NCBI GenBank assembly: GCA_045588165.1
Contig: JAZNDP010000100.1
Location: 1-53,127 of the forward strand
Source: Eubacteriales bacterium
GTDB taxonomy: Bacteria > Bacillota > Clostridia > Oscillospirales > CAG-272
Reading direction: 5' to 3'
DNA length: 53,127 nt
Made by a program: the position numbers and the translations under genes. The notes under the pieces are model-generated. The model had not been told where the DNA came from and searched no databases. It saw nothing but the letters and a program-made list of their open reading frames with translations. Below, piece after piece: positions 11,903-32,998 of the stretch (position 1 is the stretch's first letter; every line of letters starts with the position of its first letter).

Positions 11903-11955
11903 GTGTGCGAAGGGCTTTTAATCATGGAAAAACCGATTGATTCATATAGTTATTT

Positions 11956-12918
11956 ATGAATATGTCAAAACAATTACCGGAAAGGCGGAGCATGATGAAA
12001 GCATCGGAAAAGCAGAGAGTAGGAGGGAATCAGAGATGGGGGTTGACCGAGGCGGAGGTGTCGGCATCCCGCGAAAAGCATGGGGCGAATCTTCTCAGCG
12101 GTGGAGAGACTCGTGGATTTTGGCGGCTCTTTTTTGGCAATCTTGGAGATCCTGTGATCCGCATTTTGCTCTGTGCTTTGGGAGTCAATTTATTTTTTGT
12201 GTTTCGGGGAGGAGATTGGATCGAAACGCTGGGGATCGGCGTATCGGTCTTTCTTGCCACCTTGATTTCCACCCTGTCCGAGCGAGGAAGCGAGAGGGCG
12301 TTCCATAGGCTTTCAGAGGAATGCGACCGTTCGGAGGTGCGAGCGCTTCGAGACGGTGTCTGGCGACAGATTCCCATGGAGGAGATTGTTGTAGGGGATC
12401 TTTTGCGAATCAGCGCGGGAGAGCAGGTTCCCGCCGACGGGTACGTCATCAGCGGTTCTCTTACGGTGGATCAGTCAGCAATGACGGGAGAGAATCGGGA
12501 GATTGAAAAAATCAGAAGCTCCGATAAAACGAAAAACCCCAATGGAAAGAGCGCGGTTTTTCGTGGCTGTCCCGTGCTTGGTGGCGAGGCGGAGGTGGAG
12601 GTGTTTGCGGTAGGAGACGCCACCTTCCTCGGACAAATCTCGGGGGAGCTCCGTATTGAAACGAGAGAGAGTCCGCTGAAGATTCGCCTGACAAAGCTTG
12701 CGAAGCAGATCAGCCGTCTTGGATATTTTGCCGCGGCACTTGTGGCGTTTGCCTATCTTTTTAACGTATTTTTTATCGACAGCGGCTATCATACCGATAT
12801 GATTCTTATGAAGCTTCGGGATTTCTCCTATCTTGGGGCACACCTGCTCAAGGCGTTCATGCTTGGCCTGACCGTGGTGGTAGTAGCCGTTCCCGATGGT
12901 ATAGCCTATTATAACTGA
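11956..12918 (+). pseudogene. P-type cation-transporting ATPase (P2/Ca2+-type), N-terminal fragment truncated by element insertion
   Basis: Cation_ATPase_N-like LTEAEVSASREKHGANLL and actuator-domain TGE motif (DQSAMTGEN). The reading frame runs ...LGLTVVVVAVP, then leaves the ATPase sequence at 12894 (DGIAYYN-stop is element-encoded). The continuation is at 31229. Confidence 0.9.
12890..12917. other. attL (core TTCC 12890-12893 plus element-side arm AGCCTATTATAACTG 12903-12917)
   Basis: TTCC is the only sequence shared at both junctions. The element arm is the near-perfect inverted copy (14/15) of CAGTTATATTAGGCT at attR. Confidence 0.8.
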
Positions 12919-12937
12919 ATGATTCCAACAAATAAAT

Positions 12938-14329
12938 TTATTGGTTTGTGTGAAAAACGACGTGGAAGGTGCCTTCTTCGGTAACGGTGATCTGTTTGAT
13001 TGTCCGAGACCAGAAGGCTTTTTTTGATTCCTCGGAGAGCTTGTGGTAGGACTCCAAGGCGTATTTGAATTTCTTGACGTCGATTTCTTTTTTAGTTTGT
13101 TCCTTGTTCTGTTGCTCGGCTTCTTTGAGCGAGGCTGTTAGAGCAAAGTAATCCTTTTCATATGATTCTCTTGAAATCAGATCGTTTAGATAAAGGTCTT
13201 TGAGTTTATCAAGCTTTGCGTAGATCTTAGTTGTATCAATGAGTTTCTTTGGACCTTGCTTTTGCTGATCGCGAATCATACGGTTGTATTTTTCGGCTTC
13301 AAGCTGGAGATTCTGAAGGAGCCATTCTTCCAGCTTTGCTTGGTTGAATTGTCTGCTGGTAGGACAGATTCTCATTGTATGCGCCGGGCAACGGTAGTAT
13401 ATGAAGGTTTGTTTTACGGATCCGTCAGCTCGTTTGTTTGCGCAGCTGTAGGTTGTCATTCTTCGACCGCAGGAGCCGCAAAAGACAAGTCCTGTGAAAA
13501 GGTATACGCGATTGGATCGAGTACCGTCGTATCGTGCAGATCTCGTTTCTAAAATGGATCCTGCGAGATTAAATGTTTCTTCGGTAATAATAGCAGGACA
13601 CCATCCCTTGATTCCGTAAGCTTCTCCAATATACCAACGATTGGTGAGCATTCGTTTCATGCTTTTTACGTCAATAAATATCCCGTATTCTTCCATGATA
13701 TAACGGGAGGTAGCCTTCATGGATCGGCAATCGATGTATTTGTTGAACATGGCGCGGACGATTTCGGCGCCGCTCTCGTCAATTACGATGCGCTTGTCCT
13801 GAATGGCAAAGCCAAGAGAGGTCATGCCGGAGATTACGCGACCTTCCTTGACCATGTTCTGGAATGCGAACTTGATTCGCTCGGAGGTTCGGTCTGCCTC
13901 GTCTTGGGCAATTGCTAGCTTGATATTCAGTGCCAAGCGTCCATTTGCTGTGGTGGTGTCGTAATCCTCCTCTGTGGCGATCCATTGAACCTTGTGACGG
14001 TCGAGAATGGTCTGGACCTCGTAGAAGTCCGCGATATTACGGAACCAACGGTCCAGCTTGATGAAGAGAATGACGTCGATCTTGCCGAGCTTGACGTCAT
14101 CGATCATGCGCATGAATGCGCCTCGGCGAGTGTAACGCTTTCGCGCGGAGATTCCCTCGTCCACGTAGAGGTCAACGATCTGAAGGTCGTTGTCCTTTGC
14201 GTATTGGATGAGACGCTCTTTTTGAGCATCGAGGGAAACACCGTGCATGGCTTGTTCTTCTGTTGAAACACGAGCATATAGAGCAGCTCTCCGGATTCCG
14301 TTATCAATTCTTTTTTGCTTATATGCCAT
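12938..14329 (-). CDS. Large serine recombinase (integrase)
   Basis: 463 aa. Resolvase-type N-terminal domain with catalytic-Ser context AALYARVSTEEQ, then a recombinase domain, a zinc ribbon (CGSCGRRM...YYRCPAH) and a C-terminal coiled-coil region. The stop lies 45 nt from the attL core. Confidence 0.95.
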   Translation of the reverse strand: MAYKQKRIDNGIRRAALYARVSTEEQAMHGVSLDAQKERLIQYAKDNDLQIVDLYVDEGISARKRYTRRGAFMRMIDDVKLGKIDVILFIKLDRWFRNIADFYEVQTILDRHKVQWIATEEDYDTTTANGRLALNIKLAIAQDEADRTSERIKFAFQNMVKEGRVISGMTSLGFAIQDKRIVIDESGAEIVRAMFNKYIDCRSMKATSRYIMEEYGIFIDVKSMKRMLTNRWYIGEAYGIKGWCPAIITEETFNLAGSILETRSARYDGTRSNRVYLFTGLVFCGSCGRRMTTYSCANKRADGSVKQTFIYYRCPAHTMRICPTSRQFNQAKLEEWLLQNLQLEAEKYNRMIRDQQKQGPKKLIDTTKIYAKLDKLKDLYLNDLISRESYEKDYFALTASLKEAEQQNKEQTKKEIDVKKFKYALESYHKLSEESKKAFWSRTIKQITVTEEGTFHVVFHTNQ

Positions 14330-14350
14330 AGTGTCCTCTTTTTTTAAAAA

Positions 14351-14695
14351 TTATGAAAAGATGCTACCTAAAATGCCTAATCCGGTTATTCCCAAAATTG
14401 CTAGTACAATGAGTATGATGCACATGCAACCGCAACCGATTCCCATTGTTCCGCCGAAGGCTTTTGAAAAACAACCTTCTTCGTCTTGCTGATTTGTGTT
14501 CATATCAATATCAAAACTTATTGGCTCCTTCTGTTGCTGTTGGCAAGCACAGAGTTGCCCCCTTAGGTGATAGGAGCCGCAACAAGGGCATTTTATAATT
14601 TCGCCATTGTTTACTTTTTCTTGACATTGACGACAGAGGTCGTATATGTCAGAGGGAAGACCGCAAATCTTGCATTTTTTTGAATTGTTTCCCAT
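14351..14695 (-). CDS. Zinc-ribbon protein with C-terminal Gly/Cys-rich transmembrane helix (hypothetical)
   Basis: CKICG...CRQC and CPCCG...CAC motifs, an acidic linker, then GIGCGCMCIILIVLAILGITGLGILGSIFS. Same strand as and immediately upstream of the integrase gene. Confidence 0.6.
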   Translation of the reverse strand: MGNNSKKCKICGLPSDIYDLCRQCQEKVNNGEIIKCPCCGSYHLRGQLCACQQQQKEPISFDIDMNTNQQDEEGCFSKAFGGTMGIGCGCMCIILIVLAILGITGLGILGSIFS

Positions 14696-14817
14696 TGTCG
14701 TGTTCCTTTTTAGAATATTTTATGTCAATATAGTGTAAACTCTTCAAGAATTTTACCAATATTTACCGCTGTACTTGTAATTGCTCTTCATGTAAAATAG
14801 TACATGGAGGTGATTAT

Positions 14818-15441
14818 ATGTATAAGAACTATCAAGCTGCCAGAGATCATGCCTGGCAGTATTTAATTCGGCACAAGGTAAGGGAATTGCCTGTGGATGT
14901 ATTTGCCTTGTGTCGCGCTGACGGGATCGTGTTGGTACCGTATTCGTCCCCGGAAGCTTTGCCTATGGCTAAACTGATCCATGCGGAGGAGTTCATGACA
15001 CAAACGGATGGATTTGTTGTACAGCTTGCGGGAGAAATTACAATTTTCTGGGATGATTCTTTACCGTTACCACGTCAGCGTTTTACGATTGCCCATGAGC
15101 TCGGTCATGTCTACAATGGAGATCTTGGACCGATCCCAACAATGCGAAATCAAGAACCATCCGATGATGACGATCCGAGAGAGACAGCTGCAAATATTTT
15201 TGCATCAAGGATTCTTGCTCCTGCTTGTGTCCTGTGGGCTCTTGAGGTTCGGGATCCTAAAGCGATTGCTGATCTTTGTTGCATTTCTCAAGAGTCGGCA
15301 AAATGGAGGTATAAAAGGCTCCTTTTGCTTTATGAAAGGGAAAAGCAGTTTATCTCAAGGTATGGTAGGTCCTGTTTTTTGATGTCTCCATTGGAGAAAA
15401 AAGTTTTTAAGCAGTTCAAAAAATACATAGTACGTCAATAG
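14818..15441 (+). CDS. ImmA/IrrE-family metallopeptidase (anti-repressor protease)
   Basis: HEXXH motif in FTIAHELGHVYNGD, plus DUF955-like context and size (207 aa). SD GGAGGTG upstream. Confidence 0.85.
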   Translation: MYKNYQAARDHAWQYLIRHKVRELPVDVFALCRADGIVLVPYSSPEALPMAKLIHAEEFMTQTDGFVVQLAGEITIFWDDSLPLPRQRFTIAHELGHVYNGDLGPIPTMRNQEPSDDDDPRETAANIFASRILAPACVLWALEVRDPKAIADLCCISQESAKWRYKRLLLLYEREKQFISRYGRSCFLMSPLEKKVFKQFKKYIVRQ

Positions 15442-15454
15442 TTTTATGAAACTT

Positions 15455-15483
15455 GGAACCTTCCGTTTGGAGGGTTCTTTTTA
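15455..15483 (+). terminator. Terminator between the convergent immA-like and repressor genes
   Basis: GGAACCTTCC (15455-15464) / GGAGGGTTC (15469-15477) stem followed by TTTTT. Confidence 0.5.
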
Positions 15484-15484
15484 T

Positions 15485-15904
15485 TTATTTTTTGCTTCTT
15501 TTCTTTTTAAAGTCTCTGATTTCTTCTTCGGTGAGTTCTGTATTCATTTGAGATCCATCGCGAGCCGCAATCTTTGCTTGAGATTTTTTTTCTTCGATAC
15601 CGAGAAGGCGGTTTACCGCTGATCGCATTTCAGGATGACTCCGATAGGCTTCGATAACGGATTGTTCTTGTTCTGAATATTTTAATGCGACACTTCTGAA
15701 TCTAATATCAGATAATCCAAATAGATAGTCTGTAGATATTTGAAAATAGTTTGCGATTTTTATTATTGTAGAATTATCAGGTTCTCTTCGGTTTTGTTCA
15801 TACATTCCGATGGCACTTGCTGAAGTATCTAATAGTGTGGCTAATTGTTTTTGTGTGAGTTTCTTTTCATTTCTTAATGTCTTAATTTTATTGCCTATAT
15901 TCAT
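15485..15904 (-). CDS. XRE-family HTH repressor (CI/ImmR-like)
   Basis: N-terminal HTH_3 pattern IKTLRNEKKLTQKQLATLLDTSASAIGMYEQNRREPDNSTIIKIANYFQISTDYLFG. 139 aa with a C-terminal extension. Divergent from the early operon. Confidence 0.9.
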   Translation of the reverse strand: MNIGNKIKTLRNEKKLTQKQLATLLDTSASAIGMYEQNRREPDNSTIIKIANYFQISTDYLFGLSDIRFRSVALKYSEQEQSVIEAYRSHPEMRSAVNRLLGIEEKKSQAKIAARDGSQMNTELTEEEIRDFKKKRSKK

Positions 15905-15934
15905 ATACTGTCTCCAATTACACGATTTGTATAT

Positions 15935-15963
15935 ATTATATCACACAAATTGTGCAAAAGCAA
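15935..15963 (-). promoter_or_regulatory. Leftward sigma-A-type promoter for the repressor gene
   Basis: Minus strand: TTGCTT (15963-15958), 17-nt spacer, TGaTATAAT extended -10 (TATAAT = 15940-15935). O2 lies in the spacer. Confidence 0.55.
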
Positions 15964-15991
15964 CAAATTACACAAAATGTGTAAAAATATC

Positions 15992-16020
15992 TTGACAATA
16001 CACGGAACGTGTGATATTAT
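15992..16020 (+). promoter_or_regulatory. Rightward early promoter
   Basis: TTGACA (15992-15997), 17-nt spacer, TATTAT (16015-16020). O4 lies in the spacer and O5 just downstream of the expected +1. Confidence 0.6.
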
Positions 16021-16043
16021 TTTAGTGTGGAACCACGAATCGT

Positions 16044-16274
16044 GTGATTGGAGGTGTTTTATTGCAATGGTTGATATCTATTCGTAAGGAATTAGGACTT
16101 ACTCGAAAAGTCGTGGCCCAAAGGGCTTTTATATCGGAAAGTTATTATCAAAAAATCGAATATGGTCAACGAATGGTTTCTGTTTCAGTAGCAAAAAGAA
16201 TTGCTACTGTATTATCGTTTGATTGGCAGCGTTTTTTTGATGATAACGATGATGATCTTGTGAAGGAGGAATAA
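16044..16274 (+). CDS. Small XRE-family HTH protein (Cro-like)
   Basis: IRKELGLTRKVVAQRAFISESYYQKIEYGQRMVSVSVAKRIATVL is an HTH_3-like segment. The real start is probably TTG 16062, preceded by GGAGGTG (16050-56). Confidence 0.75.
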   Translation: MIGGVLLQWLISIRKELGLTRKVVAQRAFISESYYQKIEYGQRMVSVSVAKRIATVLSFDWQRFFDDNDDDLVKEE

Positions 16275-16685
16275 ATGTTATCTGAATTGTATATTGAGCA
16301 GGTAAAAGCGGATCTGAAGGATATGTCGGATGCTACCAAGGGAGAAGAAGGGATTATCCTATTGGAAGCCTTGGCGGTGTTATCCGTTCTTCAGGAAACA
16401 TACCGTGAGGTGCGTGAGAAGGAAGCAAAAGAAAAAGCCTCGGAGGCAACCGAGGCTAAGGATAAACTTGTTTGTTTGGATCTTTCGGATCTTGCTTGGG
16501 AATCTCTTTCGGATATGTCTGAAACGTTCATTAAGTGTTGCAGTAAGTATTCTAATATTTCTTCTTTTGCTAGTCACGGATCTATTGCTGATTGTCCGGA
16601 AAAGATATTTACTGTGAGATTAAAACGTTTGCCCCGTACTCAACTGCGTATTTCAATTAAGACTGAAATTAGTCAGCGGAGTTAA
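16275..16685 (+). CDS. Hypothetical acidic protein
   Basis: 136-aa ORF with GAAGGAGG upstream. The start abuts the stop of the Cro-like gene. No recognisable domain. Confidence 0.55.
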   Translation: MLSELYIEQVKADLKDMSDATKGEEGIILLEALAVLSVLQETYREVREKEAKEKASEATEAKDKLVCLDLSDLAWESLSDMSETFIKCCSKYSNISSFASHGSIADCPEKIFTVRLKRLPRTQLRISIKTEISQRS

Positions 16686-16929
16686 ATTTTTTAGCGTTGC
16701 TTTTGGCTCTCTTGAGTGATTTTGAGATTTTTTCGATAAGATCCTCAAGTTGATCTTGAGAGAGTCGTAAGTTTTCTTGTTCGGTAATGTAGGCAACGTA
16801 TGCAGCGGCGATTGCCTTTTCTGCACTACTCCCGTCTGCTATTTTACCGCTTACTTTCCCTTTTAATTTTTCTTTTTCTTTGTCGAAGATATATTCGCCA
16901 AGGAATGCTGTTTTGAAATTTTTGAACAT
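16669..16929 (-). CDS. Hypothetical 86-aa protein on the opposite strand to the early operon
   Basis: SD GGAGG lies 5 nt upstream of ATG 16929 and the gene has its own promoter (next feature). The predicted product is helical and Lys/Glu-rich. Its 3' end overlaps the previous gene by 17 nt. Confidence 0.6.
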   Translation of the reverse strand: MFKNFKTAFLGEYIFDKEKEKLKGKVSGKIADGSSAEKAIAAAYVAYITEQENLRLSQDQLEDLIEKISKSLKRAKSNAKKFNSAD

Positions 16930-16952
16930 TGTTACCTCCAGTTTTTTATTTT

Positions 16953-16981
16953 ATTATAGCATGGAGGAGGAGGAAAATCAA
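16953..16981 (-). promoter_or_regulatory. Minus-strand promoter for the 86-aa gene
   Basis: Minus strand: TTGATT (16981-16976), 17-nt spacer, TGcTATAAT (TATAAT = 16958-16953). It overlaps the SD/start region of the plus-strand gene at 16983. Confidence 0.5.
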
Positions 16982-16982
16982 G

Positions 16983-17288
16983 ATGTCTTATGAGTTATTT
17001 TTTCGCAGGGAGTATATCCCACCTGAAAAAGAGGGAGTGACTCGTTTAAATGGTGACGAGCAGCGTCCGATTGATCAGGATTTTGATCGAGAGTTATCGT
17101 GGATATTAATAAGAGAAGAGCTTTTTGAAAAGCGTTTATGTGATTTGAAAGAAGCTGCTTATAATTTCTTTATTTCCACTGGTACTAAGTCTGTTACTTT
17201 GACTTTTAATCCTTACACCAAAGAAACCTCTATGGAGGATCCCATTGCGGTAACGCGAATTAAACGATTTAGGAGGAAAAGAAAATGA
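16983..17288 (+). CDS. Hypothetical protein
   Basis: Start chosen at MSYELFFRREY (ATG 16983), preceded by GGAGGAGGAGG. 101 aa. Confidence 0.55.
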   Translation: MSYELFFRREYIPPEKEGVTRLNGDEQRPIDQDFDRELSWILIREELFEKRLCDLKEAAYNFFISTGTKSVTLTFNPYTKETSMEDPIAVTRIKRFRRKRK

Positions 17289-17806
17289 ACAAAACAGAAA
17301 AACGCCGTGAATGGTTTCCGGTAGAAATGACTATCAAGGAGGATCTTCCGGGAGATAAGGTACCCGTATTTGTAACGGACGGTGAATACGTTGACGTAGG
17401 CTGTTTTGACTTTGACGACAGTCTTTGGATTACTGCCTTAGGCTTTGTCGATCCGGATCATATTACCCATTGGATGGAGATTCCCAGTCCCGGAGAACTG
17501 GCGTCTTTCTTTGTTCCGATGAACGAGAGAAAGGAAACGCCTAAAGAGCCTGTATCGGTGACTGGAGACAAGCAGAAGATCTCTTATCAGGAGATGTATG
17601 AGTTTGTTGCTCGGTATATGCATCAGGAGGATGTTTCTCATCTGGATTTTGATCGGTTTTATGATTCTGGTGGGTTTGTTCTTAACGTTTCAAGAAACAT
17701 GCCCACTCATGATAATTCTACTTATTATGTTACTCATGGTAACATTAAGATTGATTATCTTTTGGAGGATCAGGATGATTCAGAGATCGAATTTTATCCC
17801 TCCTGA
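17285..17806 (+). CDS. Phage-type protein with DUF551-like N-terminal domain
   Basis: REWFPVEMTIKEDLPGDKVPVFV...ITHWMEIPSPGE resembles the DUF551 pattern (W..v.d.lP......vTHWMPLPePP). ATGA start/stop overlap with the previous gene. Confidence 0.65.
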   Translation: MNKTEKRREWFPVEMTIKEDLPGDKVPVFVTDGEYVDVGCFDFDDSLWITALGFVDPDHITHWMEIPSPGELASFFVPMNERKETPKEPVSVTGDKQKISYQEMYEFVARYMHQEDVSHLDFDRFYDSGGFVLNVSRNMPTHDNSTYYVTHGNIKIDYLLEDQDDSEIEFYPS

Positions 17807-17942
17807 ACAGGAGCCGGATGATCCTGTTTATATTCACAAGCCGGAATCTGTGATCCATGGCTGGGATTATTCGGATCTGATCGAGGAAGCGGAGGACCGC
17901 ATTGAGGAACGCCGAGCGATTTACGGTGATGAAATACTTTAG
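17775..17942 (+). CDS. Hypothetical small acidic protein
   Basis: ATG 17775 is preceded by GGAGGA. 55 aa. It overlaps the 3' end of the previous gene by 32 nt, so this is a weak call. Confidence 0.35.
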   Translation: MIQRSNFIPPEQEPDDPVYIHKPESVIHGWDYSDLIEEAEDRIEERRAIYGDEIL

Positions 17943-17954
17943 GAGGTGATTTAC

Positions 17955-18164
17955 TTGCAGAGTAAAAGAACCGGTTTCACGCCGGAACAGATTCTCAAAG
18001 GTATGGAATGTTGCCGGGACGCTGTTACCGGCGATTGTGATGATTGCCCTTATATCGTTAGAACCGGCGCTCTTGACGTGGAGTCCTGCGTGGATACCAT
18101 GATGGACGACGCGCGGGAGCTGATCATTCGTCTATTACAATCGAAAGGAGAAGCTCATGGGTAA
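17955..18164 (+). CDS. Hypothetical Cys-rich small protein
   Basis: AGGAGG at 17941-46 favours TTG 17955 over the track start at 17946. Contains the CC...C..C cluster MECCRDAVTGDCDDCPY. Confidence 0.5.
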   Translation: MQSKRTGFTPEQILKGMECCRDAVTGDCDDCPYIVRTGALDVESCVDTMMDDARELIIRLLQSKGEAHG

Positions 18165-18438
18165 GGTTGTTATTCAGTTCTGGGAATGTGATATCTGTCG
18201 TTCCCGGTACGAGAAAGAAGATGAGCTGAAGTGGATCGGTATTCCGGTCAAGAAATTCAAGAGGGACGGCAGCGGATACCGGAAGGGATTTGTGCCCGCG
18301 CTCGTCTGTGACAAGTGTCAGAATAAGATGTGGGATCTGTTCCAATCCCGAATTGCCGATATCTCCGAGTTTGAGGGAGAGCTGACAGTTGTGCTGAAGC
18401 CCCATCCGTTGAGTGATACCCCGAAGGAGGTGACTTAA
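18157..18438 (+). CDS. Hypothetical zinc-ribbon protein
   Basis: CDIC ... CDKC pair. SD AAAGGAG upstream. 93 aa. Confidence 0.6.
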   Translation: MGKVVIQFWECDICRSRYEKEDELKWIGIPVKKFKRDGSGYRKGFVPALVCDKCQNKMWDLFQSRIADISEFEGELTVVLKPHPLSDTPKEVT

Positions 18439-18566
18439 TGGCGCCGTATTTGGAGTGGATGGTTAGCTTTTTATTGTGGGCGATCGTAGTCGGATTCGCT
18501 TATGCGGGTCTGCAACGGTTCTTCCGCTGGCTAACCGTAAAGATTGGAGGTGAGGATTCGTTTTGA
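18438..18566 (+). CDS. 42-aa single-pass membrane peptide (below the track size cutoff)
   Basis: MAPYLEWMVSFLLWAIVVGFAYAGLQRFFRWLTVKIGGEDSF. GAAGGAGG lies 7 nt upstream. TAATG overlap with the previous stop. Confidence 0.4.
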   Translation: MAPYLEWMVSFLLWAIVVGFAYAGLQRFFRWLTVKIGGEDSF

Positions 18567-18636
18567 AACAGAATGATCTGTGCTTGAACGGGCACCGCTC
18601 CTCATATACTTAATAAAAAAGCCGTAGGAGGTTTAT

Positions 18637-18858
18637 ATGCGCTCGGAGCCGAAGATCATATTTGATAACCAGCCGGATATCGGTTACATAGAGACGGTTC
18701 TTTTGAATCTTCTTGCCAAGCAGGAAGGCTGGGATTGTGAATTTAAGGTAACTGCAACATTAAAAAAGGAATATCAAGGAGGATGTCTAAATGACGTACA
18801 AGGAGATTCAACAAGAGAAAACCGTTGCATTGGAGAAGGTTCTCCGTGCCGCGTTTGA
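18637..18858 (+). CDS. Hypothetical protein
   Basis: Good SD (TAGGAGG) before ATG 18637. The 3' end overlaps the next ORF by 68 nt. Confidence 0.4.
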   Translation: MRSEPKIIFDNQPDIGYIETVLLNLLAKQEGWDCEFKVTATLKKEYQGGCLNDVQGDSTRENRCIGEGSPCRV

Positions 18859-19102
18859 TACGGAGGTTTCCGAACGGGGAGATCTTCGTGACGTTTATTC
18901 CATTGCTCGTCGGCTTGTAGAGAAGAACGTGAGCGTGGAGAGGTCCGCAACATGGGTCAAGGATGAGTCCTATCAGGGAAAGAGCAAGGTGATCTATCGT
19001 TGCTCTCACTGCGATCACTGGAAGGCTGTGAAGAAGGAAAATCAGAATGAGATTGCCCATCTTCATTATTGCAATTTCTGCGGATCGAGGATGAGTCTAT
19101 GA
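18791..19102 (+). CDS. Hypothetical zinc-ribbon protein
   Basis: SD AAGGAGG. The C-terminus has CSHCDHW...CNFCGS (a CxxC...CxxC pair). Confidence 0.55.
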   Translation: MTYKEIQQEKTVALEKVLRAAFDTEVSERGDLRDVYSIARRLVEKNVSVERSATWVKDESYQGKSKVIYRCSHCDHWKAVKKENQNEIAHLHYCNFCGSRMSL

Positions 19103-19296
19103 GAAGGATCCTGCGGACAAGCATTGCTTTTGTCAAGAAGTTATTTATCTATTTCGTTTGTTGTTCTACTCCTCGTGCGATTGTGGACGCTGTTAATGAT
19201 GCCGCAAACGCTGAGGAATTTGACCGTGCGCTGTATTCAGCTGCCGGCTTTGAGGAAAGGAGGGAGCTTTGTGGACAAGCCCATCGAGTATCGTAA
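19099..19296 (+). CDS. Hypothetical small protein
   Basis: ATGA overlap with the previous stop. 65 aa. Weak call. Confidence 0.3.
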   Translation: MRRILRTSIAFVKKLFIYFVCCSTPRAIVDAVNDAANAEEFDRALYSAAGFEERRELCGQAHRVS

Positions 19297-19642
19297 GGTG
19301 GATTCGGAGACGTTCCGTAAGTTTGTTTCCGGCATGAAGACTTGTTGGCTTCAGAGAGTGGACCGGGATCTTGATGTGAATGACCGAATTGTTCTTCAAG
19401 AGGTTCGCGGAGATCTGATCACTGGAAGGGCTCTTGAAATAGCGATTACCGGTGTGGAGGTCAATGAGTATTGTCCTGAGGGCTTCTGTTTGATTTCATT
19501 TCAGCCTGTGTCCTCCCTGGCGAAGATCGCCGTGGAGGTTTACTTCGGACTTTTCGCCATGTTTGCCGAGAAGCAGCAGGAGCTTGCGGAGCTGGAAAAG
19601 AAATATAACGAATTGTTACGTAACAAGGAGGTGATCTTGTGA
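19271..19642 (+). CDS. ASCH/DUF3850-like domain protein
   Basis: GTG 19271 is preceded by AAGGAGGG. VDKPIEYRKVDSETFRKFVSGMKTCWLQRVDRDLDVNDRIVLQEV....TGRALEIAITGVE resembles the DUF3850/ASCH pattern (HELK....F.....G.K.fE.R.NDR.f.vGD.l.L.E....TGR). The upstream part of track ORF 19124.. is unlikely to be coding. Confidence 0.55.
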   Translation: MDKPIEYRKVDSETFRKFVSGMKTCWLQRVDRDLDVNDRIVLQEVRGDLITGRALEIAITGVEVNEYCPEGFCLISFQPVSSLAKIAVEVYFGLFAMFAEKQQELAELEKKYNELLRNKEVIL

Positions 19643-19716
19643 TTTATTTTCCCGCGAGGTGTCGTGATCCTACTGCCCGAATTTGTTAGTGTTATTTATT
19701 TGGCGTTTGTAAAAAA

Positions 19717-19748
19717 TCGGGCTGAAATCCCGCTCGTTTTCAGCCCGA
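19717..19748. other. 11-bp hairpin flanked by A6 runs in the intergenic region upstream of rep
   Basis: TCGGGCTGAAA (19717-27) / TTTCAGCCCGA (19738-48). A second hairpin, GGGGCGGTATTGTAATACGCCCC, lies at 19784-19806. Confidence 0.7.
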
Positions 19749-19871
19749 AAAAACTACTGCTGGAAGGTCTTTCCGGCATCCCTGGGGCGGTATTGTAATA
19801 CGCCCCATACATAAGCATGATTTTTCGGGCAAAAAGTCAGGAAAATCAAAGCTTGAAAGCATTTTTTCTCG

Positions 19872-19897
19872 TTTGGTCAAATGATGGTTTGACCAAA
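19872..19897. repeat. Perfect 10-bp inverted repeat immediately upstream of the rep SD
   Basis: TTTGGTCAAA (19872-81), 6-nt spacer, TTTGACCAAA (19888-97). The SD GGAAGG begins at 19904. Confidence 0.85.
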
Positions 19898-19918
19898 TGG
19901 ATTGGAAGGTAAAATAAT

Positions 19919-21562
19919 GTGTTGACTGTTCAGGTTCGGAGATGTTCAATTCTCCACGAATTTACTGGGGAACAGCAACAACGATTTTTCGGAATTTCAC
20001 GAGATAAAACGATTCATCACGTGGATACGTTGTATTACGCAGTTAATATAAATGAGCCGGATAATATCGTCGAGCTTCAAGCGAACGACGCTCTGCCGGA
20101 GAACTTGGCAAAGTTTTTGCAAATGCTGCGAGATACAAAAGCGTATACCAGTATGAATTATTCGGACAGTATTGAGTTTGATGATGGAATGGAATACGCG
20201 AGAAAGGCGTTTTCCATATACGAGTTTTGCATCAGCAAAAATGAGTGCTTTGATATTTTCATCAGCTCTTACGTACCGACGGAGGAGACTCCCCGCATCG
20301 TCGTGCAGCTTCGTTCCAGATTTCTCGTGCTGGAGGGTGTGCGGCGAGCGGTGGAGGAATCTCTGATTTATCTTAGAAAGTTCCTTGAGCCTTATGGGCT
20401 GTTTCCCGTAAAAATAAGGGAAAATCGAATTGATTATGCGTATCATACCAATTTGATACAAAATCCGTATAAGTTTTTTTCGGATGATTGTCTTGTCAAT
20501 CATTTGAAAACGAATTTACGGTGCTTTGCAAAGTACGGAAAGATTACGGATCATGGAATTGAGCTTGAGACTCTGACGCTTGGAAATCGTAAATCCAACA
20601 ACGTTTATTTTCGTGGATATAACAAGTGTCAGGAGATCATTCGAATGAATTATAAATCCTTTTTCTTTCAGCGTTGGCGTGATCATGGCTTAATCTCCGA
20701 GTTCGATCAATACGTTTATCAGGTTGCTTACGATATGAAATCGTATAGGGCCGGCGTTCTTGTCGGACGGATCCGATGGTATCTTGAGTATGGTACCAAT
20801 GAGGATCTTAAGGAGTATCTTCGCGATGTTCTTGTGAAGAACCATATTAAGTCTGATAACTGTACTAATCTGGAGAAAGAGCTCAAGAACGTAATTCCGG
20901 AGCCGACCTTGATTTTTAACGTGGAGTTTCAGACCAAACGTAAATTTTACACTACGTGTGGTGATTGGCTTGGGCTTCACGACGTGATCGACGATCCCGT
21001 TTACCCAAGGTATACGATGGAGCCCTATCCAACAGATCCGCGAGTGGTAACTGCCGCCGCTTGTGATCCGTTGCTCCGGGATCTCTTTTTTATCCTTGCA
21101 AACGGTAAGGAGATCATGAATTATTTAACCGGCTTTGGAAATACGGTGAGCTTCGTTGAGAATCGTAATGTTTCTTTCAAGCAATTCAAAAAGGCGGGTG
21201 AGCCGTATATGAATTGGTGGAAGCGGATTCGTTCCACGCCTGTGGAATATTCTTCTCCGGAAATTATGGAGCTGTATCGGAAGTATGATGTACGCGCGTC
21301 GTTTTCAAAAACCCGTAGATTGCTATCGGGGCAGGTCGCAAGGCTTGCCATGATCGCAAATGAATCAACAGAGGAGCGGACTTTTGAGGAGGATCTGGCA
21401 GACGCGCTTTGTTATCTGAATGATAACGATTTTAAGGTCCAGTATATGGACATTCGAAAACGTAAAGCGCGGCAGCTGCGAGGGATTCTTCCCAAAGGTG
21501 AGCCGCAAGAAAAATTAAATTGTGACCGGAGCACGATTTCTCCGGAGAAAGTGAAGGAATAA
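19919..21562 (+). CDS. Rep_trans-family rolling-circle replication initiator (alternatively a MOB_T-type relaxase)
   Basis: 547 aa. ENRIDYAYH matches the RxDxAxD/H segment. LTLGNRKSNNVYFRGYNKCQEII aligns with the RepC/RepD active-site region GxRxSxRFIRIYNKKQERK as I recall it. The candidate catalytic Tyr234 is codon 20618-20620. Confidence 0.7.
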   Translation: MLTVQVRRCSILHEFTGEQQQRFFGISRDKTIHHVDTLYYAVNINEPDNIVELQANDALPENLAKFLQMLRDTKAYTSMNYSDSIEFDDGMEYARKAFSIYEFCISKNECFDIFISSYVPTEETPRIVVQLRSRFLVLEGVRRAVEESLIYLRKFLEPYGLFPVKIRENRIDYAYHTNLIQNPYKFFSDDCLVNHLKTNLRCFAKYGKITDHGIELETLTLGNRKSNNVYFRGYNKCQEIIRMNYKSFFFQRWRDHGLISEFDQYVYQVAYDMKSYRAGVLVGRIRWYLEYGTNEDLKEYLRDVLVKNHIKSDNCTNLEKELKNVIPEPTLIFNVEFQTKRKFYTTCGDWLGLHDVIDDPVYPRYTMEPYPTDPRVVTAAACDPLLRDLFFILANGKEIMNYLTGFGNTVSFVENRNVSFKQFKKAGEPYMNWWKRIRSTPVEYSSPEIMELYRKYDVRASFSKTRRLLSGQVARLAMIANESTEERTFEEDLADALCYLNDNDFKVQYMDIRKRKARQLRGILPKGEPQEKLNCDRSTISPEKVKE

Positions 21563-21564
21563 AT

Positions 21565-21891
21565 ATGAGATACGTATGTGTTGGTGTAGAAAAGAACAAG
21601 GGTGATTTTACTGATGAAGCAGGCCGCAAGGTGGAGTACGATAACGTCGTTCTTCAGTGCGTGTGCTCGGATCCTAATCCCGCGCTGAAGGCGGGTATGT
21701 ATCGTGGTTGTCGTGTCGGTGAGGTCAAAATGAAGAATGATTTTGATAACCTCGTCTATGCCGGTGACAATAAGGTTTACGCTTTCTCGGATCTGGTTGG
21801 CTGCGAGTTGGATATCGCTATCGATGCGGATAAGAAGATCCTTGGCGTAGCCGTTCTTTCGATGGATGGAATCGAAAAGCTTATTTCCTAA
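21565..21891 (+). CDS. Hypothetical 108-aa protein directly downstream of rep (positional analogue of an ssDNA-binding protein; function unproven)
   Basis: ATG lies 2 nt after the rep stop. SD GAAGGAA. No motif recognised. Confidence 0.6.
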   Translation: MRYVCVGVEKNKGDFTDEAGRKVEYDNVVLQCVCSDPNPALKAGMYRGCRVGEVKMKNDFDNLVYAGDNKVYAFSDLVGCELDIAIDADKKILGVAVLSMDGIEKLIS

Positions 21892-22039
21892 GCTCTGTCC
21901 CGGTTGCGGGAAGCTGCTTCTCAAATATCGTCCGGGTGGTAGAGCCGAGCTTTTGCTCTGGTGTCGCCATTGCCGGGCCGAGGTTCCCGTAATAATTCGT
22001 CCGGAGGACGAAAACAAAAATAAAAACGAAAAAAAATAA
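21866..22039 (+). CDS. 57-aa Com-like zinc-ribbon protein (below the track size cutoff)
   Basis: MESKSLFPKLCPGCGKLLLKYRPGGRAELLLWCRHCRAEVPVIIRPEDENKNKNEKK. The CPxCGKLL...C.HC pattern resembles Mu Com-type zinc ribbons. It overlaps the previous ORF by 26 nt and has no clear SD. Confidence 0.4.
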   Translation: MESKSLFPKLCPGCGKLLLKYRPGGRAELLLWCRHCRAEVPVIIRPEDENKNKNEKK

Positions 22040-22045
22040 AATCTT

Positions 22046-22091
22046 GAGCCATTGAGCCGAATAAAGAAATTCGTCTCGGTGGCTCTTTTTC
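22046..22091 (+). terminator. Rho-independent terminator between the replication module and the membrane-protein module
   Basis: GAGCCA..GAG.CGA / TCG.CTC..TGGCTC stem (22046-22085) followed by TTTTT (22086-22090). Only 16 nt separate it from the next start codon. Confidence 0.6.
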
Positions 22092-22107
22092 ATGAAAGGA
22101 AAAAGTT

Positions 22108-22629
22108 ATGTTTAAAAAGTTTGGATGGTTGAAGATCGTCGCGTTGGTTATGGTTGGATTCCTTCTCGGTGGTATTTTTATGAACTTTACCGGTACGGAA
22201 ACTAAAAATCCGTTTAAGAAGGAACTGAATGAAAACAACCTGATCGAAGTAGACTCGACGTATATTAAGACTCAGGATACAAATCGCGGCGTAAAGATCA
22301 AGGTTGCTGACGACGGTACGATTAAGCTTTCCGGTAAGGCAACGTCTGATTTGGTTGTAACCGTTGCTACGGTTTCTCTTGAGCCCGGTTGGTATACTTT
22401 GTCCGGTTTGGAGTCTCCCGATATCAATAAGTTCTATCTTTACGGCGTATACGGTGTTTCCGGTCAGGCTATTTCCGGAACGGATAGCGCCGTGTTTGAG
22501 ATTACCGAACCGACGGATATTGTTATTAAGCTTTCTTGGACGGAAGATGTAAGCTTTAACATCTTTACGGATAACAAGATTCAGCCTGTGCTTGTTGAAG
22601 GAAAGACTGCCGGAGCTTTCTATAAATAA
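22108..22629 (+). CDS. N-terminally membrane-anchored protein, paralog A (of 29157..29654)
   Basis: TM segment WLKIVALVMVGFLLGGIFM, then a beta-rich ectodomain. It shares NLI.VD..Y..TQ.T.RGV...VA.DGTIKL.GKATSD.V..VATV.LEPG.YTLSGL..PD.N..YL...QPVLV.G.TAG.FYK with paralog B. Confidence 0.8.
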   Translation: MFKKFGWLKIVALVMVGFLLGGIFMNFTGTETKNPFKKELNENNLIEVDSTYIKTQDTNRGVKIKVADDGTIKLSGKATSDLVVTVATVSLEPGWYTLSGLESPDINKFYLYGVYGVSGQAISGTDSAVFEITEPTDIVIKLSWTEDVSFNIFTDNKIQPVLVEGKTAGAFYK

Positions 22630-22694
22630 TTTTTTGTGCCATCCTTTAAATAATTGAATTATTTTGGAGGATGGCATAGGATAAGGAGTTTATT

Positions 22695-23312
22695 ATGTTA
22701 AAACTTGTTGTTGGATTGATTTCTCTGATTTTAGTTTTGACTCTCATTGTTGGGTCAGTTTTTGTTATCAGAGAGATTGGCGAGGTAGGAGATAGCTTGT
22801 CCAGTACTTTAAATGATGGTACTGATGGCGGTACTGATGGCGGTACCGACAGCGGTACAAATAGCGGTACCGACAACGGTACAAATAGTGGTACCGACAG
22901 CGGTACTCAAACGCCATCTACTGCTGACTTTTATATTGATACTGTAAATGATACCGGATATAGAACCGTTGCTGGAGTTACTTACTTTTTTAAGGTGATT
23001 CGTCAGGATTATATTGGGAACAGGTGTTGTTATTTTAGTTACTATGATGGTTCTGGTGGAAATATTAAACCTTACGGTTCGTATTCTCTTTCTCTTTTCT
23101 GGAGTACTGATTCTATTGCATGGTCTAATTGCATGTCGGATGTGGATAATCAATGTTGGCAGTTTGTTTCCAGCGATACTAATATTGGATATCTATGTTA
23201 TACAACTGTTTTTGGTTGTACGAATCCGAAGGTTGTTCTTGAAGATTTAAATCAAAATGTATTTTTGAATCCTGATATCTTCAGATATTCTATGGTATTT
23301 GCTGCAGGTTAA
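22695..23312 (+). CDS. N-terminally anchored protein with GT[DN]x tetrapeptide repeat linker and Cys/Trp/Tyr-rich C-terminal domain
   Basis: TM segment LKLVVGLISLILVLTLIVGSVFVI. Repeat GTDGGTDGGTDSGTNSGTDNGTNSGTDSGTQ. SD AAGGAG. Confidence 0.8.
   Translation: MLKLVVGLISLILVLTLIVGSVFVIREIGEVGDSLSSTLNDGTDGGTDGGTDSGTNSGTDNGTNSGTDSGTQTPSTADFYIDTVNDTGYRTVAGVTYFFKVIRQDYIGNRCCYFSYYDGSGGNIKPYGSYSLSLFWSTDSIAWSNCMSDVDNQCWQFVSSDTNIGYLCYTTVFGCTNPKVVLEDLNQNVFLNPDIFRYSMVFAAG
22818..22913 (+). repeat. 8 x 12-bp in-frame tandem repeat (GGTACNGAYRRC-like)
   Basis: ggtactgatggc ggtactgatggc ggtaccgacagc ggtacaaatagc ggtaccgacaac ggtacaaatagt ggtaccgacagc ggtactcaaacg. Confidence 0.9.
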
Positions 23313-23323
23313 GAGGCGTAATT

Positions 23324-30726: not shown

Positions 30727-30742
30727 GCTCGGAGACGAGCCG
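30727..30742. repeat. Right copy of the 16-bp perfect inverted repeat
   Basis: GCTCGGAGACGAGCCG. It is embedded in GGAGACG-ctc-GGAGACG and followed by the hairpin GGAACGCC-ggaac-GGCGTTCC (30742-62). Confidence 0.9.
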
Positions 30743-30779
30743 GAACGCCGGAACGGCGTTCCTTTGTATCTATGGATAC

Positions 30780-30836
30780 CCGCACAAAGAGGGAGGCGCT
30801 GCCAAGGCGGTTTAGCCGGCAGCGCCTCCCGTGCGG
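30780..30836 (-). terminator. Long GC-rich hairpin downstream of the right-end gene (possible terminator)
   Basis: CCGCAC..GGGAGGCGCTGCC (30791-30803) / GGCAGCGCCTCCC (30818-30830) GTGCGG. The minus-strand U-tract is weak (UCUUUG). Confidence 0.45.
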
Positions 30837-30845
30837 AATTTGCTT

Positions 30846-31151
30846 TTAATGCCTTATTGTGAGAAGCTCTGCTTCCGGATCCGCAAGAAAGTCCTGGATG
30901 ACGTCCTCCAGATGAATCGGATCCAGCTCCTTGATAGTACATAGATCTGCTAGTTGCTTGATTTCTTCGTAATCGGTTGATACGTCAGATACGAAGGTGA
31001 TTTCTTCTTCTACTGTGCGTACGCTCAGACTGTAGGTTACGTAAGTACCGAGTTCATCAGACGTGAGCGTTTCCTGCACGGGTACGTAGCGGTATTTCGG
31101 CTTTCGTACAGCAGAGAAGATTGGATTGTGGTGAATTGTGTTTTTGGACAT
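30846..31151 (-). CDS. Hypothetical 101-aa protein (DUF6514-like by recollection) at the element's right end
   Basis: SD AAGGAGG precedes ATG 31151. ...VSDVSTDYEEIKQLADLCTIKELDPIHLEDVIQDFLA resembles a small Clostridial family. The family name is low confidence. Confidence 0.7.
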   Translation of the reverse strand: MSKNTIHHNPIFSAVRKPKYRYVPVQETLTSDELGTYVTYSLSVRTVEEEITFVSDVSTDYEEIKQLADLCTIKELDPIHLEDVIQDFLADPEAELLTIRH

Positions 31152-31210
31152 AATACAGTCCTCCTTAATATATTTGAACTGCCGATAACGGCAAGTCCCT
31201 CTGAAAGAGT

Positions 31211-31230
31211 CAGTTATATTAGGCTCTTCC
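31211..31230. other. attR (element arm CAGTTATATTAGGCT 31211-25 plus core TTCC 31227-30)
   Basis: See attL. The host sequence resumes ...CC-TGAAGGGCTCCCGATGATG. Confidence 0.8.
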
Positions 31231-32998
31231 TGAAGGGCTCCCGATGATGATTGCCGTGGTGCTGTCCGCCAATATCCGAAGAATGATTCGGGATCAGGTG
31301 TTGGTGCGAAAGCCTGTGGGTATTGAGGCGGCGGGGAGCATGAATCTCCTCTTTACCGATAAAACGGGAACCCTGACTGAGGGGAAGATGAGCGTATGCT
31401 CCATTCTCGGCGCCGACGGTGCGGAATATACTTCCTATTCGGATTTGAAGAAAAGAGCTCCCTTACTGGCGGGGCAATACGAGTTTTCCTGCCGATACAA
31501 TACGGCGTCTGCTTGGTCGGAGGGGAAGGTTTTGGGAGGAAATGCGACCGATCGGGCGCTTCTGTCTTCCATTCCTCCCGCATCTTTGGGCATGTGGGAG
31601 GTTTTGGAGCGACTGCCCTTTGACAGCGCCAAAAAGTATGCCGCCGTTTCTCTAAGAGGAGAACGGGGGCAGCGTCGCGTATTGGTAAAGGGTGCTCCCG
31701 AGCGGCTGATTTCCTCGGTTCGTTACGCATACGTGGGAGAGGGAAGAGTAGCGGCATTTGCTCCTTTTTCCTATTCTTTTTTACGGCGCATCGAGGAAAT
31801 GACCGCAGGGGGCGGGCGTGTGCTTCTCCTTGCCGAGGGAGAGCAAATGACAGATGGCGCTTTTGGGGAGCTGACTTTGATAGGCGCAGTACTTCTGCGG
31901 GATCCGATCCGTCGGGAAGCAAGGGGCGCGATCCGACAGCTGAGAGGCGCGGGGATTCACGTGGTGATGATTACGGGAGACCATCCCGCAACGGCTCGAA
32001 GTATTGCGGAGGAGTGCGGGTTGCTTACAAAAACCTGTGATCTTGTGGTGACGGGAGAGGAGCTGGCGGCGATGTCGGACGAGGCTCTTGGGGAGCGGCT
32101 GTCCCGTCTTGCGGTGGTGGCAAGGGCATTGCCATCGGATAAAAGCCGTTTGGTTCGTCTGGCGCAGGAGAAGGATCTGGTGGTTGGCATGACGGGGGAC
32201 GGGATCAACGATGCCCCTGCGCTGAAGCGTGCCGACATTGGATTTGCCATGGGGTCGGGAACTCACGTGGCACGGGACGCGGGGGATATTATTATTCTGG
32301 ATAACAATCTGTCCTCCATTGCCCGAGCGGTGCTGTACGGTCGAACCATCTTCAAGAGCATCCGAAAGTTTATCACCCTCCAGCTGACCATGAACTTCTG
32401 CGCAGTAGGGGTGTCCATGATCGGACCCTTTGTGGGTATTGACGCGCCTGTTACGGTGGTACAGATGCTGTGGATCAATATCATTATGGATACCTTGGGC
32501 GGTCTTGCCTTCGCGGGGGAGGCTCCTCTGGATTCTTACATGAGGGAAAAGCCGAAGCGACGGGATGAGCCGATACTGAATGGGTATATGATCCATCAGA
32601 TCCTTTTGCTTGGCGGCTTTACCGTAGGACTTTGTCTGACCTTTTTGCTACACCCTACGCTGTGCGCTCTCTTTCGCCAGACTCCCAATCGGCTCTGTCA
32701 GCTAACAGCATTCTTTGCGTTGTTCATTTTTACCTCGGTGTTCAATTGCTTCAATGCCAGAACCGATCGCCTGCGGCTTTTTGCCGGGGTATCCCGCAAC
32801 CGCGCATTTCGGGGGATCATGCTTCTCGTTTGTCTGACGCAGATCCTGTTCGTTTATCTGGGGGGATCGGTTCTGCGTACCATGCCTCTGACTCCAAGGG
32901 AGCTGGGAACGACGCTGTTGCTTTCCCTCAGCGTTTTTCCCGCGGAGCTTCTGCGAAAGCTTCTCTGGCGTATGGGTGGGAAGCAAGAGGGCTTTTAA
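31229..32998 (+). pseudogene. P-type cation-transporting ATPase, C-terminal fragment
   Basis: The frame reads (P)EGLPMMIAVVLS..., then the phosphorylation motif FTDKTGTLTEG, the hinge MTGDGINDAPALKRADIG and C-terminal TM helices. It is in frame with the N-terminal fragment once 12894-31230 is removed. Confidence 0.9.

Follow-up and report, generated by a model that had tools for sequence, protein, structure and literature searches.

The stretch of DNA analysed here, hereafter the window, comprises the 53,127 nucleotides of contig JAZNDP010000100.1 from a member of the Eubacteriales (assembly GCA_045588165.1), and it carries a gene for a PMCA-type Ca2+-transporting ATPase that is split in two by an insert encoding a large serine integrase. 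The 5' part of the gene (11992..12896, plus strand) encodes residues 1 to about 302 of 889 amino acids and ends in the GA of the glutamate codon of the PEGLP motif, and the 3' part (31234..32998, plus strand) resumes as A GGG CTC CCG ATG ATG and runs to the stop codon. A first-pass annotation, made from the letters alone, had described an 18.3-kb element that splits a P-type ATPase at its PEGLP codons, and both junctions were found in the window with letters agreeing with those it quoted. The insert measures 18,337 bp and, as had been remarked, is richer in AT than its surroundings, having a G+C content of 43.0% as compared with 52.4% and 53.8% in the flanks.

Joining positions 11956-12893 to 31231-32998, as the annotation had proposed, produced one open frame of 901 codons within which VPEGLPMM, DKTGT and GDGINDAP are all encoded. 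The probable start of the ATPase is M13 or M14 of this frame, an ATG pair at 11992/11995 that gives a protein of 888-889 amino acids, as in the orthologues; the corrected join (11992-12896 with 31234-32998) is in frame and encodes an 888/889-aa PMCA-type Ca2+-ATPase. The proposal that excision would restore the frame was borne out by alignments of the joined protein, which were gapless over the junction for Ca2+-ATPases of solved structure (plant ACA8, PDB 8QMP, 1e-114; Listeria LMCA1, 3e-100) and continuous for about 8,000 homologues, the top two of which were 89% and 87% identical at 99% coverage. Against TIGR01517, the PMCA-type family of NCBIfam, the joined protein scored 533.4 bits, above the curated cut-off of 507, and this full-length match, along with the PEGLP, DKTGT and GDGxNDxP motifs of the joined frame, places it among the PMCA-type (IIB) Ca2+-ATPases.

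The 89% orthologue is encoded by an uninterrupted gene in a locus designated L001 (L-numbers denote the related loci and contigs compared with the window), which matches the window collinearly to the left and to the right of the insert: window 2020-12899 corresponds to L001 1-10905, and 31229-42930 to 10898-22663. This sister genome therefore has an empty attachment site (attB). The gene of the 87% orthologue is also intact, and its neighbouring gene families are as in the window. The insertion had been described as precise, and indeed no bases have been added or removed beyond a 2-bp core, the join being collinear with the intact orthologues.

As integrated, the 5' fragment continues for seven element codons (DGIAYYN) and then meets a TGA at 12916-18, within a conserved arm motif, and an in-frame TAG at 31220-22 closes the frame upstream of the 3' fragment, for which the first available start is the internal ATG at 31244. 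Since the 5' half stops early and the 3' half is closed upstream, the pump cannot be made while the element is integrated. Neither half contains a frameshift or an internal stop. On the window branch of the ATPase, nonsynonymous (dN) and synonymous (dS) divergence were 0.033 and 0.32, giving a dN/dS of 0.10 against 0.06 and 0.07 for the intact orthologues, these being three-taxon Nei-Gojobori distances from the window and the two intact orthologues, to which the usual caveat of a high dS applies. In all other lysogens the ATPase halves were likewise recovered as single uninterrupted alignments, including those harbouring 4-kb and 8.5-kb elements. Judged from these comparisons, the split gene is under purifying selection and free of pseudogene decay, which would be compatible either with recent insertions, as the first-pass annotation had supposed for the window, or with a gene that is still used after excision.

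The left junction (attL) reads GTTCC-C-GA-T-GG and the right junction (attR) CTTCC-T-GA-A-GG, and because TTCCnGAnGG is common to both, the join could not be placed by identity alone. The symmetry of the flanking arms and ten related junctions place the crossover at the GA dinucleotide (12895..12896 in attL and 31232..31233 in attR, both plus strand), which constitutes the first two bases of the glutamate codon. The breakpoint had been given as CC|T; its location in the PEGLP codons and the restored VPEGLPMM stand, but the crossover lies 2-3 nt further to the right and the restored sequence is GTT CCC GAA GGG rather than GTT CCT GAA GGG, both of which encode proline and hence the same protein.

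The reconstructed element site (attP), CAGTTATATTAGGCTCTTCCT-GA-TGGTATAGCCTATTATAACTG, consists of a P arm (31211..31231, plus strand) and a P' arm (12897..12917, plus strand) of 21 nt each, which are inverted repeats of one another at 17/21 positions and are centred on the GA. It forms a 44-bp imperfect palindrome in the order CAGTTATAWT, 11 nt, GA, 11 nt, AWTATAACTG, the inner bases of which mimic the CCnGAnGG of the host. CAGTTATAWT is thereby present at both element ends, each time exactly 11 nt from GA, with the same geometry as in ten related junctions. A 2-bp core between quasi-palindromic arms is the hallmark of large serine integrases such as those of phiC31, Bxb1 and TP901-1. Att sites this short, in which imperfect inverted repeats surround a 2-bp crossover and the target is duplicated no further, were found in the window, at the ten related junctions and in two free attP sites described below.

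The integrase itself is a large serine recombinase of 463 aa (12938..14329, minus strand), the gene for which has its 3' end facing attL, 20 nt beyond the end of the arm. It is full-length, with resolvase (PF00239, residues 15-164, 5.6e-31), recombinase (PF07508, residues 187-263) and zinc-ribbon (PF13408, residues 277-341) domains as defined by Pfam, and it contains the motif YARVSTEEQ, all of which assign it to the serine recombinases. Its match to the phrog_95 integrase was at 3.8e-108, and its best NCBIfam match was XisF, below the cut-off of that family. The nearest integrases of cultured phages are 32-37% identical to it.

A scan for related integrases, covering one genome per species (GTDB) and IMG/VR, retrieved 17 loci of 62-72% identity, which represent 12 distinct elements. 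In ten of the 12, the adjoining sequence is a Ca-ATPase fragment whose alignment to the joined protein breaks at residues 312-316. Of the two exceptions, L010 stops too early for a judgement, and L014 has the integrase followed by a gene of the DUF6514 family and no host gene. The spacing of exactly 11 nt between GA and CAGTTATAWT was seen at either end of L004 and L013 and at single ends of L005, L006, L007, L009 and L017-19, and the same GA junction with diverged arms was found in L008, L011 and L012. An apparent break at residue 333 in L011 was rejected as an over-extended tblastn alignment, the real junction being the same GA. The host ATPase fragments at these junctions are 43-69% identical to that of the window, and the records are variously labelled Oscillospiraceae, Eubacteriales, Clostridia and Lachnospiraceae, which indicates that the hosts are independent.

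These related elements range from 4.0 kb to more than 10 kb (8,472 bp in L004 and 3,976 bp in L013, in which both ends are present), carry different cargo and lie in either orientation. Those of L006 and L013 are inserted in reverse, the integrase-proximal arm being followed by GA and then by the 3' half of the gene, and their core, read in the orientation of the integrase, is GA, that of the other junctions being TC. Serine integrases such as those of phiC31 and Bxb1 read polarity only from the asymmetric central dinucleotide, and the inversion of L006 and L013 is thus attributed to a flipped core in attP, with polarity set by the core alone. In L009 (1-9400), the integrase, an ImmA gene and an XRE gene adjoin the 5' half of the ATPase gene, and no 3' half was present within 9 kb; L009 is either a large element with metabolic cargo or a rearranged, grounded copy. 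The next 9 kb of L009 encode a fucose isomerase, a GHMP kinase, a glycosyl hydrolase and a 2-hydroxyacid dehydrogenase.

Metagenome contigs were also scanned with a pattern for the complete attP, which identified two contigs (L031 and L032) where the gene of an integrase relative, of 59% and 52% identity, leads at its 3' end directly into an intact attP. In L031 the integrase-attP junction is followed by a helix-turn-helix (HTH) gene and a DUF6514 gene, the arrangement that would be expected of an excised or not-yet-integrated L004-like element. These free integrase-attP junctions indicate that members of the family exist free as well as integrated. The other two of the four full-attP pattern matches (L029 and L030) lay away from any integrase and were discounted as palindromes that are unrelated or due to chance.

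The insert is likely to be an integrated, structurally intact mobile element whose integrase uses the PEGLP-encoding DNA of a PMCA-type Ca2+-ATPase gene as its attB. Strand exchange, placed at the GA that opens the invariant glutamate codon, splits the pump gene, which the reverse reaction would return to its exact sequence. Integrases of this clade occupy that dinucleotide in at least ten Clostridia genomes, with varied cargo and in both orientations. Two reasons may underlie the choice of site. An invariant protein motif would provide a DNA target that is constant across divergent hosts, and the pump may be dispensable for vegetative growth, in which case lysogens would pay little cost; deletion of yloB without an effect on growth in Solibacillus counts in favour of this (PMC12999246). 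Excision would need the integrase and a directionality factor, for which the DUF6514 protein is a candidate, and the excised element would then replicate by rolling circle from an initiator of the Rep_trans fold.

Several observations weigh against this reading. Among public sequencing runs, a query with the left junction matched a single run, with 5% of its words, and a 10-kb query from the element matched none. The dispensability of the pump in the window host is extrapolated from distant Bacillales. The lack of a 3' half in L009 implies that some copies are rearranged and unable to restore the gene. For the directionality factor there are positional candidates only; of these, DUF6514 is encoded by a degenerate gene in the 4-kb element of L013, and a search of IMG/VR gave no DUF6514 relatives. 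Mis-joining of this single metagenome-type contig is very unlikely given the exact, family-typical att geometry. The first-pass annotation had called the insertion reversible, and a full-length integrase, intact symmetrical att sites, full-length cargo and two relatives found free all speak for this, but excision of the window copy itself is a prediction from the intactness of its integrase, att sites and cargo.

The same annotation had likened the arrangement to regulatory elements of the skin, SPbeta and comK type. The analogy is reasonable with respect to site specificity, the position of L013 and L004 between intact gene halves and the existence of mother-cell Ca-ATPases, but the insert is not a recognisable tailed prophage. 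The yloB gene of Solibacillus is transcribed exclusively in the mother cell, beginning at early engulfment; its product YloB is located around the forespore and is required for dehydrated, heat-resistant spores, being dispensable for growth and Ca2+ tolerance (PMC12999246), and the putative Ca-ATPase CD2833 of C. difficile is a member of the sigmaE regulon (PMC3789822). Documented sporulation intervening elements all employ a serine recombinase and all reside in mother-cell genes (PMC4191935, PMC5595907), those in sigK, spsM, spoVFB, spoVR, gerE and yabG being excised in the mother cell (PMC4191935, PMC5595907, PMC10747680). The literature searched did not name a Ca-ATPase as the target of such an element.

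It is therefore worth considering an extension of the reading above, which it does not contradict, namely that the element is a developmental gene switch that would be integrated in vegetative cells and the forespore and be excised by its integrase in the mother cell, rebuilding the pump for Ca2+ delivery. We regard this as possible but doubtful. By analogy, a mother-cell-only, growth-dispensable YloB needed for spore heat resistance (PMC12999246) and a sigmaE-controlled CD2833 (PMC3789822) would suit it, as would the serine recombinases and mother-cell target genes of the known sporulation elements (PMC4191935, PMC5595907). At 4.0 kb and 8.5 kb, L013 and L004 are too small for whole phages, yet they retain an integrase and both att sites intact and sit between uninterrupted ATPase halves, and the window-branch dN/dS of 0.10 points in the same direction. 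A candidate -10 box, CATATAGT (11943..11950, plus strand), precedes the ATPase start by about 45 nt, is the same in both orthologues and resembles the C. difficile mother-cell sigmaE/sigmaK -10 boxes CATATTAT and CATATAAT (PMC3789822). It falls within a 20-nt block, GATTCATATAGTTATTTATG (11939-11958), that is invariant in the two orthologous loci, the DNA just upstream having diverged. No clear -35 element accompanies CATATAGT, and as a mother-cell promoter it is only suggestive and serves as a lead.

Other evidence argues against a switch. No sporulation gene was found among the host open reading frames (ORFs) scanned in the window and in the L006 and L008 flanks, which amount to a few kb per genome, and no sporulation-type promoter was found before the integrase or the candidate directionality factors. 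Orthology of the window pump to YloB or CD2833 is an assumption, and the promoter resemblance consists of one octamer. The element, moreover, looks complete and autonomous, with a DNA-damage-type ImmA/XRE switch, and a host function is unnecessary to explain it. A small ORF (about 55-62 aa), behind which comes a terminator-like hairpin, is located just upstream of the ATPase promoter region (window 11657-11845, plus strand; L001 9675-9842), and the ORF is kept in both orthologous loci.

A grounded remnant, in which a single integration lost the ability to excise and the Ca-ATPase gene died in the lineage, appears improbable. Decayed or rearranged relatives would suit it (L013, at 4 kb and with a degenerate DUF6514 gene, and L009, without a 3' half), as would the indirect case for excision of the window copy. 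Nonetheless, integrase, att arms and conserved cargo genes have all been retained intact and at full length, the gene halves are free of frameshifts and stops, and a dN/dS of 0.10 against 0.06-0.07 is unexpected for a long-dead gene. An assembly artefact joining a bacterial chromosome to an unrelated low-GC element is hardly credible, for although the single contig of apparent metagenomic origin, the sharp GC change at both junctions and the failure of public-run searches to give reads to place on the contig might suggest one, a chimera would not put both ends on the same dinucleotide of one codon or CAGTTATAWT 11 nt from GA on both sides, and the junction recurs in ten independent assemblies from different studies.

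The preferred reading, of an intact element with PEGLP-encoding DNA as its attB, requires a directionality factor, and the best placed candidate is the 101-aa DUF6514 protein (30846..31151, minus strand; PF20124, 6.1e-9), whose gene is the first inside attR and reads inwards. Homologues occupy the same position in L004, follow the integrase-attP junction in L031 and follow the integrase in L014, and an HTH gene accompanies DUF6514 in both L004 and L031. When the element is integrated, DUF6514 has nothing but antisense host DNA upstream, whereas in the circle the gene lies directly downstream of the integrase, across attP. Its expression is probably coupled to the excised state, on the basis of this layout, and since it would be joined to the integrase transcription unit only in the circle it is the leading positional candidate for a directionality or post-excision factor. 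Recombination directionality factors have no conserved sequence (PMC12286644), and the literature searched made no mention of the DUF6514 family. Near-consensus outward promoters were observed between the integrase stop and the att site in L011 (12110-12145), L012 (4283-4312) and L014 (6361-6390); in the integrated state these point antisense into the 5' ATPase fragment and in the circle towards the genes across attP, DUF6514 in the case of L014.

The remainder of the lysogeny module lies beyond the integrase. Upstream of the integrase gene, in the same direction, is a gene for a 114-aa protein with many Cys-x-x-Cys motifs and a membrane segment at its C-terminus (14351..14695, minus strand), which had no family match and is preceded by a promoter-like TTTACA-16-TATTCT. 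It is followed by genes for an ImmA/IrrE-type metalloprotease (14818..15441, plus strand; PF06114, 4.4e-12), which accompanies the integrase in most related loci, and for an XRE-family repressor (15485..15904, minus strand; PF01381, 9.4e-16; phrog_8). Divergent from the repressor, an early operon (16044..19642, plus strand) opens with a Cro-like HTH gene (16044-16274), before which a promoter at 15992-16020 has 11/12 consensus matches. This operon also encodes a 103-aa zinc-ribbon protein (18791-19102, plus strand), homologues of which travel with the integrase in several loci and which is a second positional candidate for the directionality factor, and a DUF3850 protein (19124-19642, plus strand). 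Nearly all element genes to the right of the lysogeny module are on the plus strand, and nearly all are without a family assignment.

Downstream of the early operon, a 547-aa protein (19919..21562, plus strand) is, according to its predicted structure, a rolling-circle initiator. An AlphaFold2 model built with 41 homologues (pLDDT 80) matched the Geobacillus Rep_trans protein 4CIJ in the PDB with a probability of 1.00 (E 4e-6). At the sequence level the matches were weak (phrog_20614, 7e-4; Rep_trans PF02486, 0.02 in 3/5 relatives), and a homologue 29-30% identical to it forms the large ORF in a pair of C. difficile plasmids (6.5-6.8 kb). Rep_trans is also the fold of MOB_T relaxases; a conjugative or mobilisable element is nevertheless not favoured, no VirB4, coupling-protein or cell-wall-hydrolase families having been found.

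The initiator gene is followed by a conserved late module (21565..29971, plus strand), the gene order of which is also present in L023-L026. It encodes in turn proteins of 108 aa, 173 and 205 aa (both N-anchored), 695 aa (with a signal peptide and a C-terminal anchor), 368 aa (secreted), 757 aa, 165 aa and 103 aa, and none of these has a Pfam domain. The 757-aa protein (26855-29128, plus strand) is a polytopic membrane P-loop ATPase in which about 300 aa of membrane helices precede the P-loop domain. The window cargo genes are full-length against those of L023-L026, which carry other integration modules: L026 lies beside smpB, L024 has a LexA-like repressor and L025 has ImmA/XRE. Two membrane-anchored proteins, of 173 aa (22108-22629) and 165 aa (29157-29654), are 49% identical paralogues and flank the late module; in each of L023-L026 one gene matching them was seen, as compared with two in the window.

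Relatives of this cargo are widespread, the ATPase family numbering 1,253 representatives at 50% clustering and the initiator family 378 members, and all named members are hypothetical proteins. The cargo family is represented in IMG/VR by two loci only. In a phage collection of 50,697 records, one unverified faecal scaffold matched the ATPase and none matched Rep or the other late genes. Pfam and PHROGs searches of 22/23 element ORFs returned no match to capsid, portal, terminase, tail or lysis proteins, and a tailed temperate prophage (Caudoviricetes) was rejected on the grounds of these zero structural or lysis matches. The cargo-bearing contigs of relatives, at 11-15 kb, included none with terminal overlap; L033 and L034 had been considered as circles and proved instead to be overlapping fragments.

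An inovirus-like identity was also considered. The match to 4CIJ supplies a rolling-circle initiator, one of the features of an inovirus-like phage. As in inovirus-like phages and Rep_trans replicons (pT181/RepD; pCd1_4), this initiator is followed by a gene of about 100 aa, and the cargo, including a long structured non-coding region, lies nearly all on one strand, the lysogeny module and DUF6514 of the window being on the opposite strand. Membrane-anchored proteins come next, one of them large and equipped with a signal peptide and a C-terminal anchor, and are succeeded by a membrane ATPase, which is likewise reminiscent of inovirus-like phages. In contrast to these, however, the membrane helices of the ATPase (about 300 aa) precede rather than follow the P-loop, the element is 18 kb in size, its proteins are unusually large, and no Zot/pI match was obtained by Pfam, PHROGs or fold search.

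Pfam and PHROGs profiles applied to the ATPase and 41 relatives gave only generic P-loop matches, and its AlphaFold2 model (pLDDT 81) retrieved nothing better than E 6e-3 in BFVD and 0.7 in the PDB. A Zot/pI identity was accordingly set aside, profiles of the 42 members and folds in both databases yielding generic P-loop similarity only, and an inovirus pI/Zot-type ATPase was not found in the window element. Neither was a coat-like small ORF, with a signal peptide, membrane segment and basic tail, found in the element, nor any other small gene of the major-coat type.

A distant Rep relative does sit beside a coat-like gene in the 6.8-kb C. difficile plasmid pCd1_4 (NZ_CP037847.1; L035, 152-5081). 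Its Rep is 29% identical to that of the window, and its genes are laid out on a single strand. An 84-aa protein of this plasmid resembles the major coat protein of inoviruses in having a signal peptide, a mature form that begins AEGD, a single membrane segment and a basic tail, and a 421-aa protein has a signal peptide and C-terminal anchor. From its gene content, pCd1_4 looks like the replicative form of a filamentous phage.

The cargo of the window is an uncharacterised integrative rolling-circle element, rich in membrane proteins. Most likely, though with low confidence, the element is a non-tailed temperate virus. A bolder proposal, that the integrase clade has made the Ca2+-ATPase a developmentally rearranged gene rebuilt in the mother cell and that the element belongs to a large, unrecognised family of non-tailed, rolling-circle, membrane-associated temperate viruses, seems to us unlikely.

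A serine-integrase element inside a gene is of a kind already known. The sporulation elements of this type comprise skin in sigK (SpoIVCA), SPbeta in spsM (SprA/SprB), vfbin in spoVFB, vrin in spoVR, gin in gerE (GirC/GirX) and yin in yabG. Like these, the window element encodes its own large serine recombinase, lies within a coding sequence and has imperfect inverted repeats at attL and attR, its excision would restore the frame exactly, members of the class range from apparently complete mobile elements to small remnants, and homologues of the target gene are mother-cell sporulation genes. Unlike these, its target is a PMCA-type Ca2+-ATPase at the PEGLP codons, which was absent from the literature searched, its hosts are uncultured gut Clostridia (metagenome-assembled genomes labelled Oscillospiraceae or Eubacteriales), it carries a membrane-protein-rich rolling-circle module instead of a tailed prophage, and its excision is a prediction. 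With the Listeria phages A118 and phi10403S in comK, an example of active lysogeny, it shares a serine integrase within a host ORF and a reversible excision that would reactivate the gene, whereas target, host group and cargo differ, and a non-lytic, signal-dependent excision would be hypothetical in the window.

With phiC31, Bxb1 and TP901-1 the system has in common its domain set, att sites of about 40-50 bp whose quasi-palindromic arms enclose a non-palindromic 2-bp crossover that determines polarity, and an attB and attP that otherwise differ in sequence. It departs from them in its low identity, in an attP that mimics about 8 bp of attB (CCnGAnGG) and in natural flipped-core variants that insert in the opposite orientation. 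No description of the PEGLP target, of the family-wide specificity for the glutamate codon, of the flipped-core variants or of the cargo seems to exist in the literature and collections searched.

Here, then, is a natural integrase clade whose attB lies behind one of the most conserved protein motifs known. Its attP, attB and core can be read from more than ten junctions, and flipped-core variants occur naturally, which provides a system for the study of integrase target choice, and the clade is a possible integration tool for Clostridia. The locus is also a testable candidate for a new DNA-rearrangement switch in the formation of spores by gut anaerobes. If rebuilding in the mother cell were true, a transporter, loading Ca2+ for calcium dipicolinate (Ca-DPA), would join the short list of rearrangement-controlled sporulation genes, and lysogeny could modulate spore heat resistance and so transmission. 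The cargo, for its part, reveals a widespread integrative rolling-circle family that has no characterised member and has been almost wholly missed by phage catalogues.

Between the last late gene and DUF6514 lies a region (29943..30845, plus strand) made up of a promoter and about 870 nt without a credible ORF. The promoter (29943-29972) is of the sigma70 type, with TTGACA, 18 nt and TATAAT (12/12 matches, plus a TG), and the stretch that follows has a strong predicted structure with a minimum free energy of -391 kcal/mol. Positions 29975-30845 matched no Rfam family at gathering or relaxed thresholds. A 100-nt block within it (30497-30600) recurs at 76-82% identity in L024 and L026, in the non-coding DNA that follows the ATPase gene of the late module. 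The stretch is put forward as a candidate for an origin or for packaging, and an unrecognised RNA is a further possibility. Elsewhere in the window, a glmS ribozyme (Rfam RF00234, 46 bits; 6401-6550, minus strand) is located upstream of the host glmS gene and constitutes ordinary host content.

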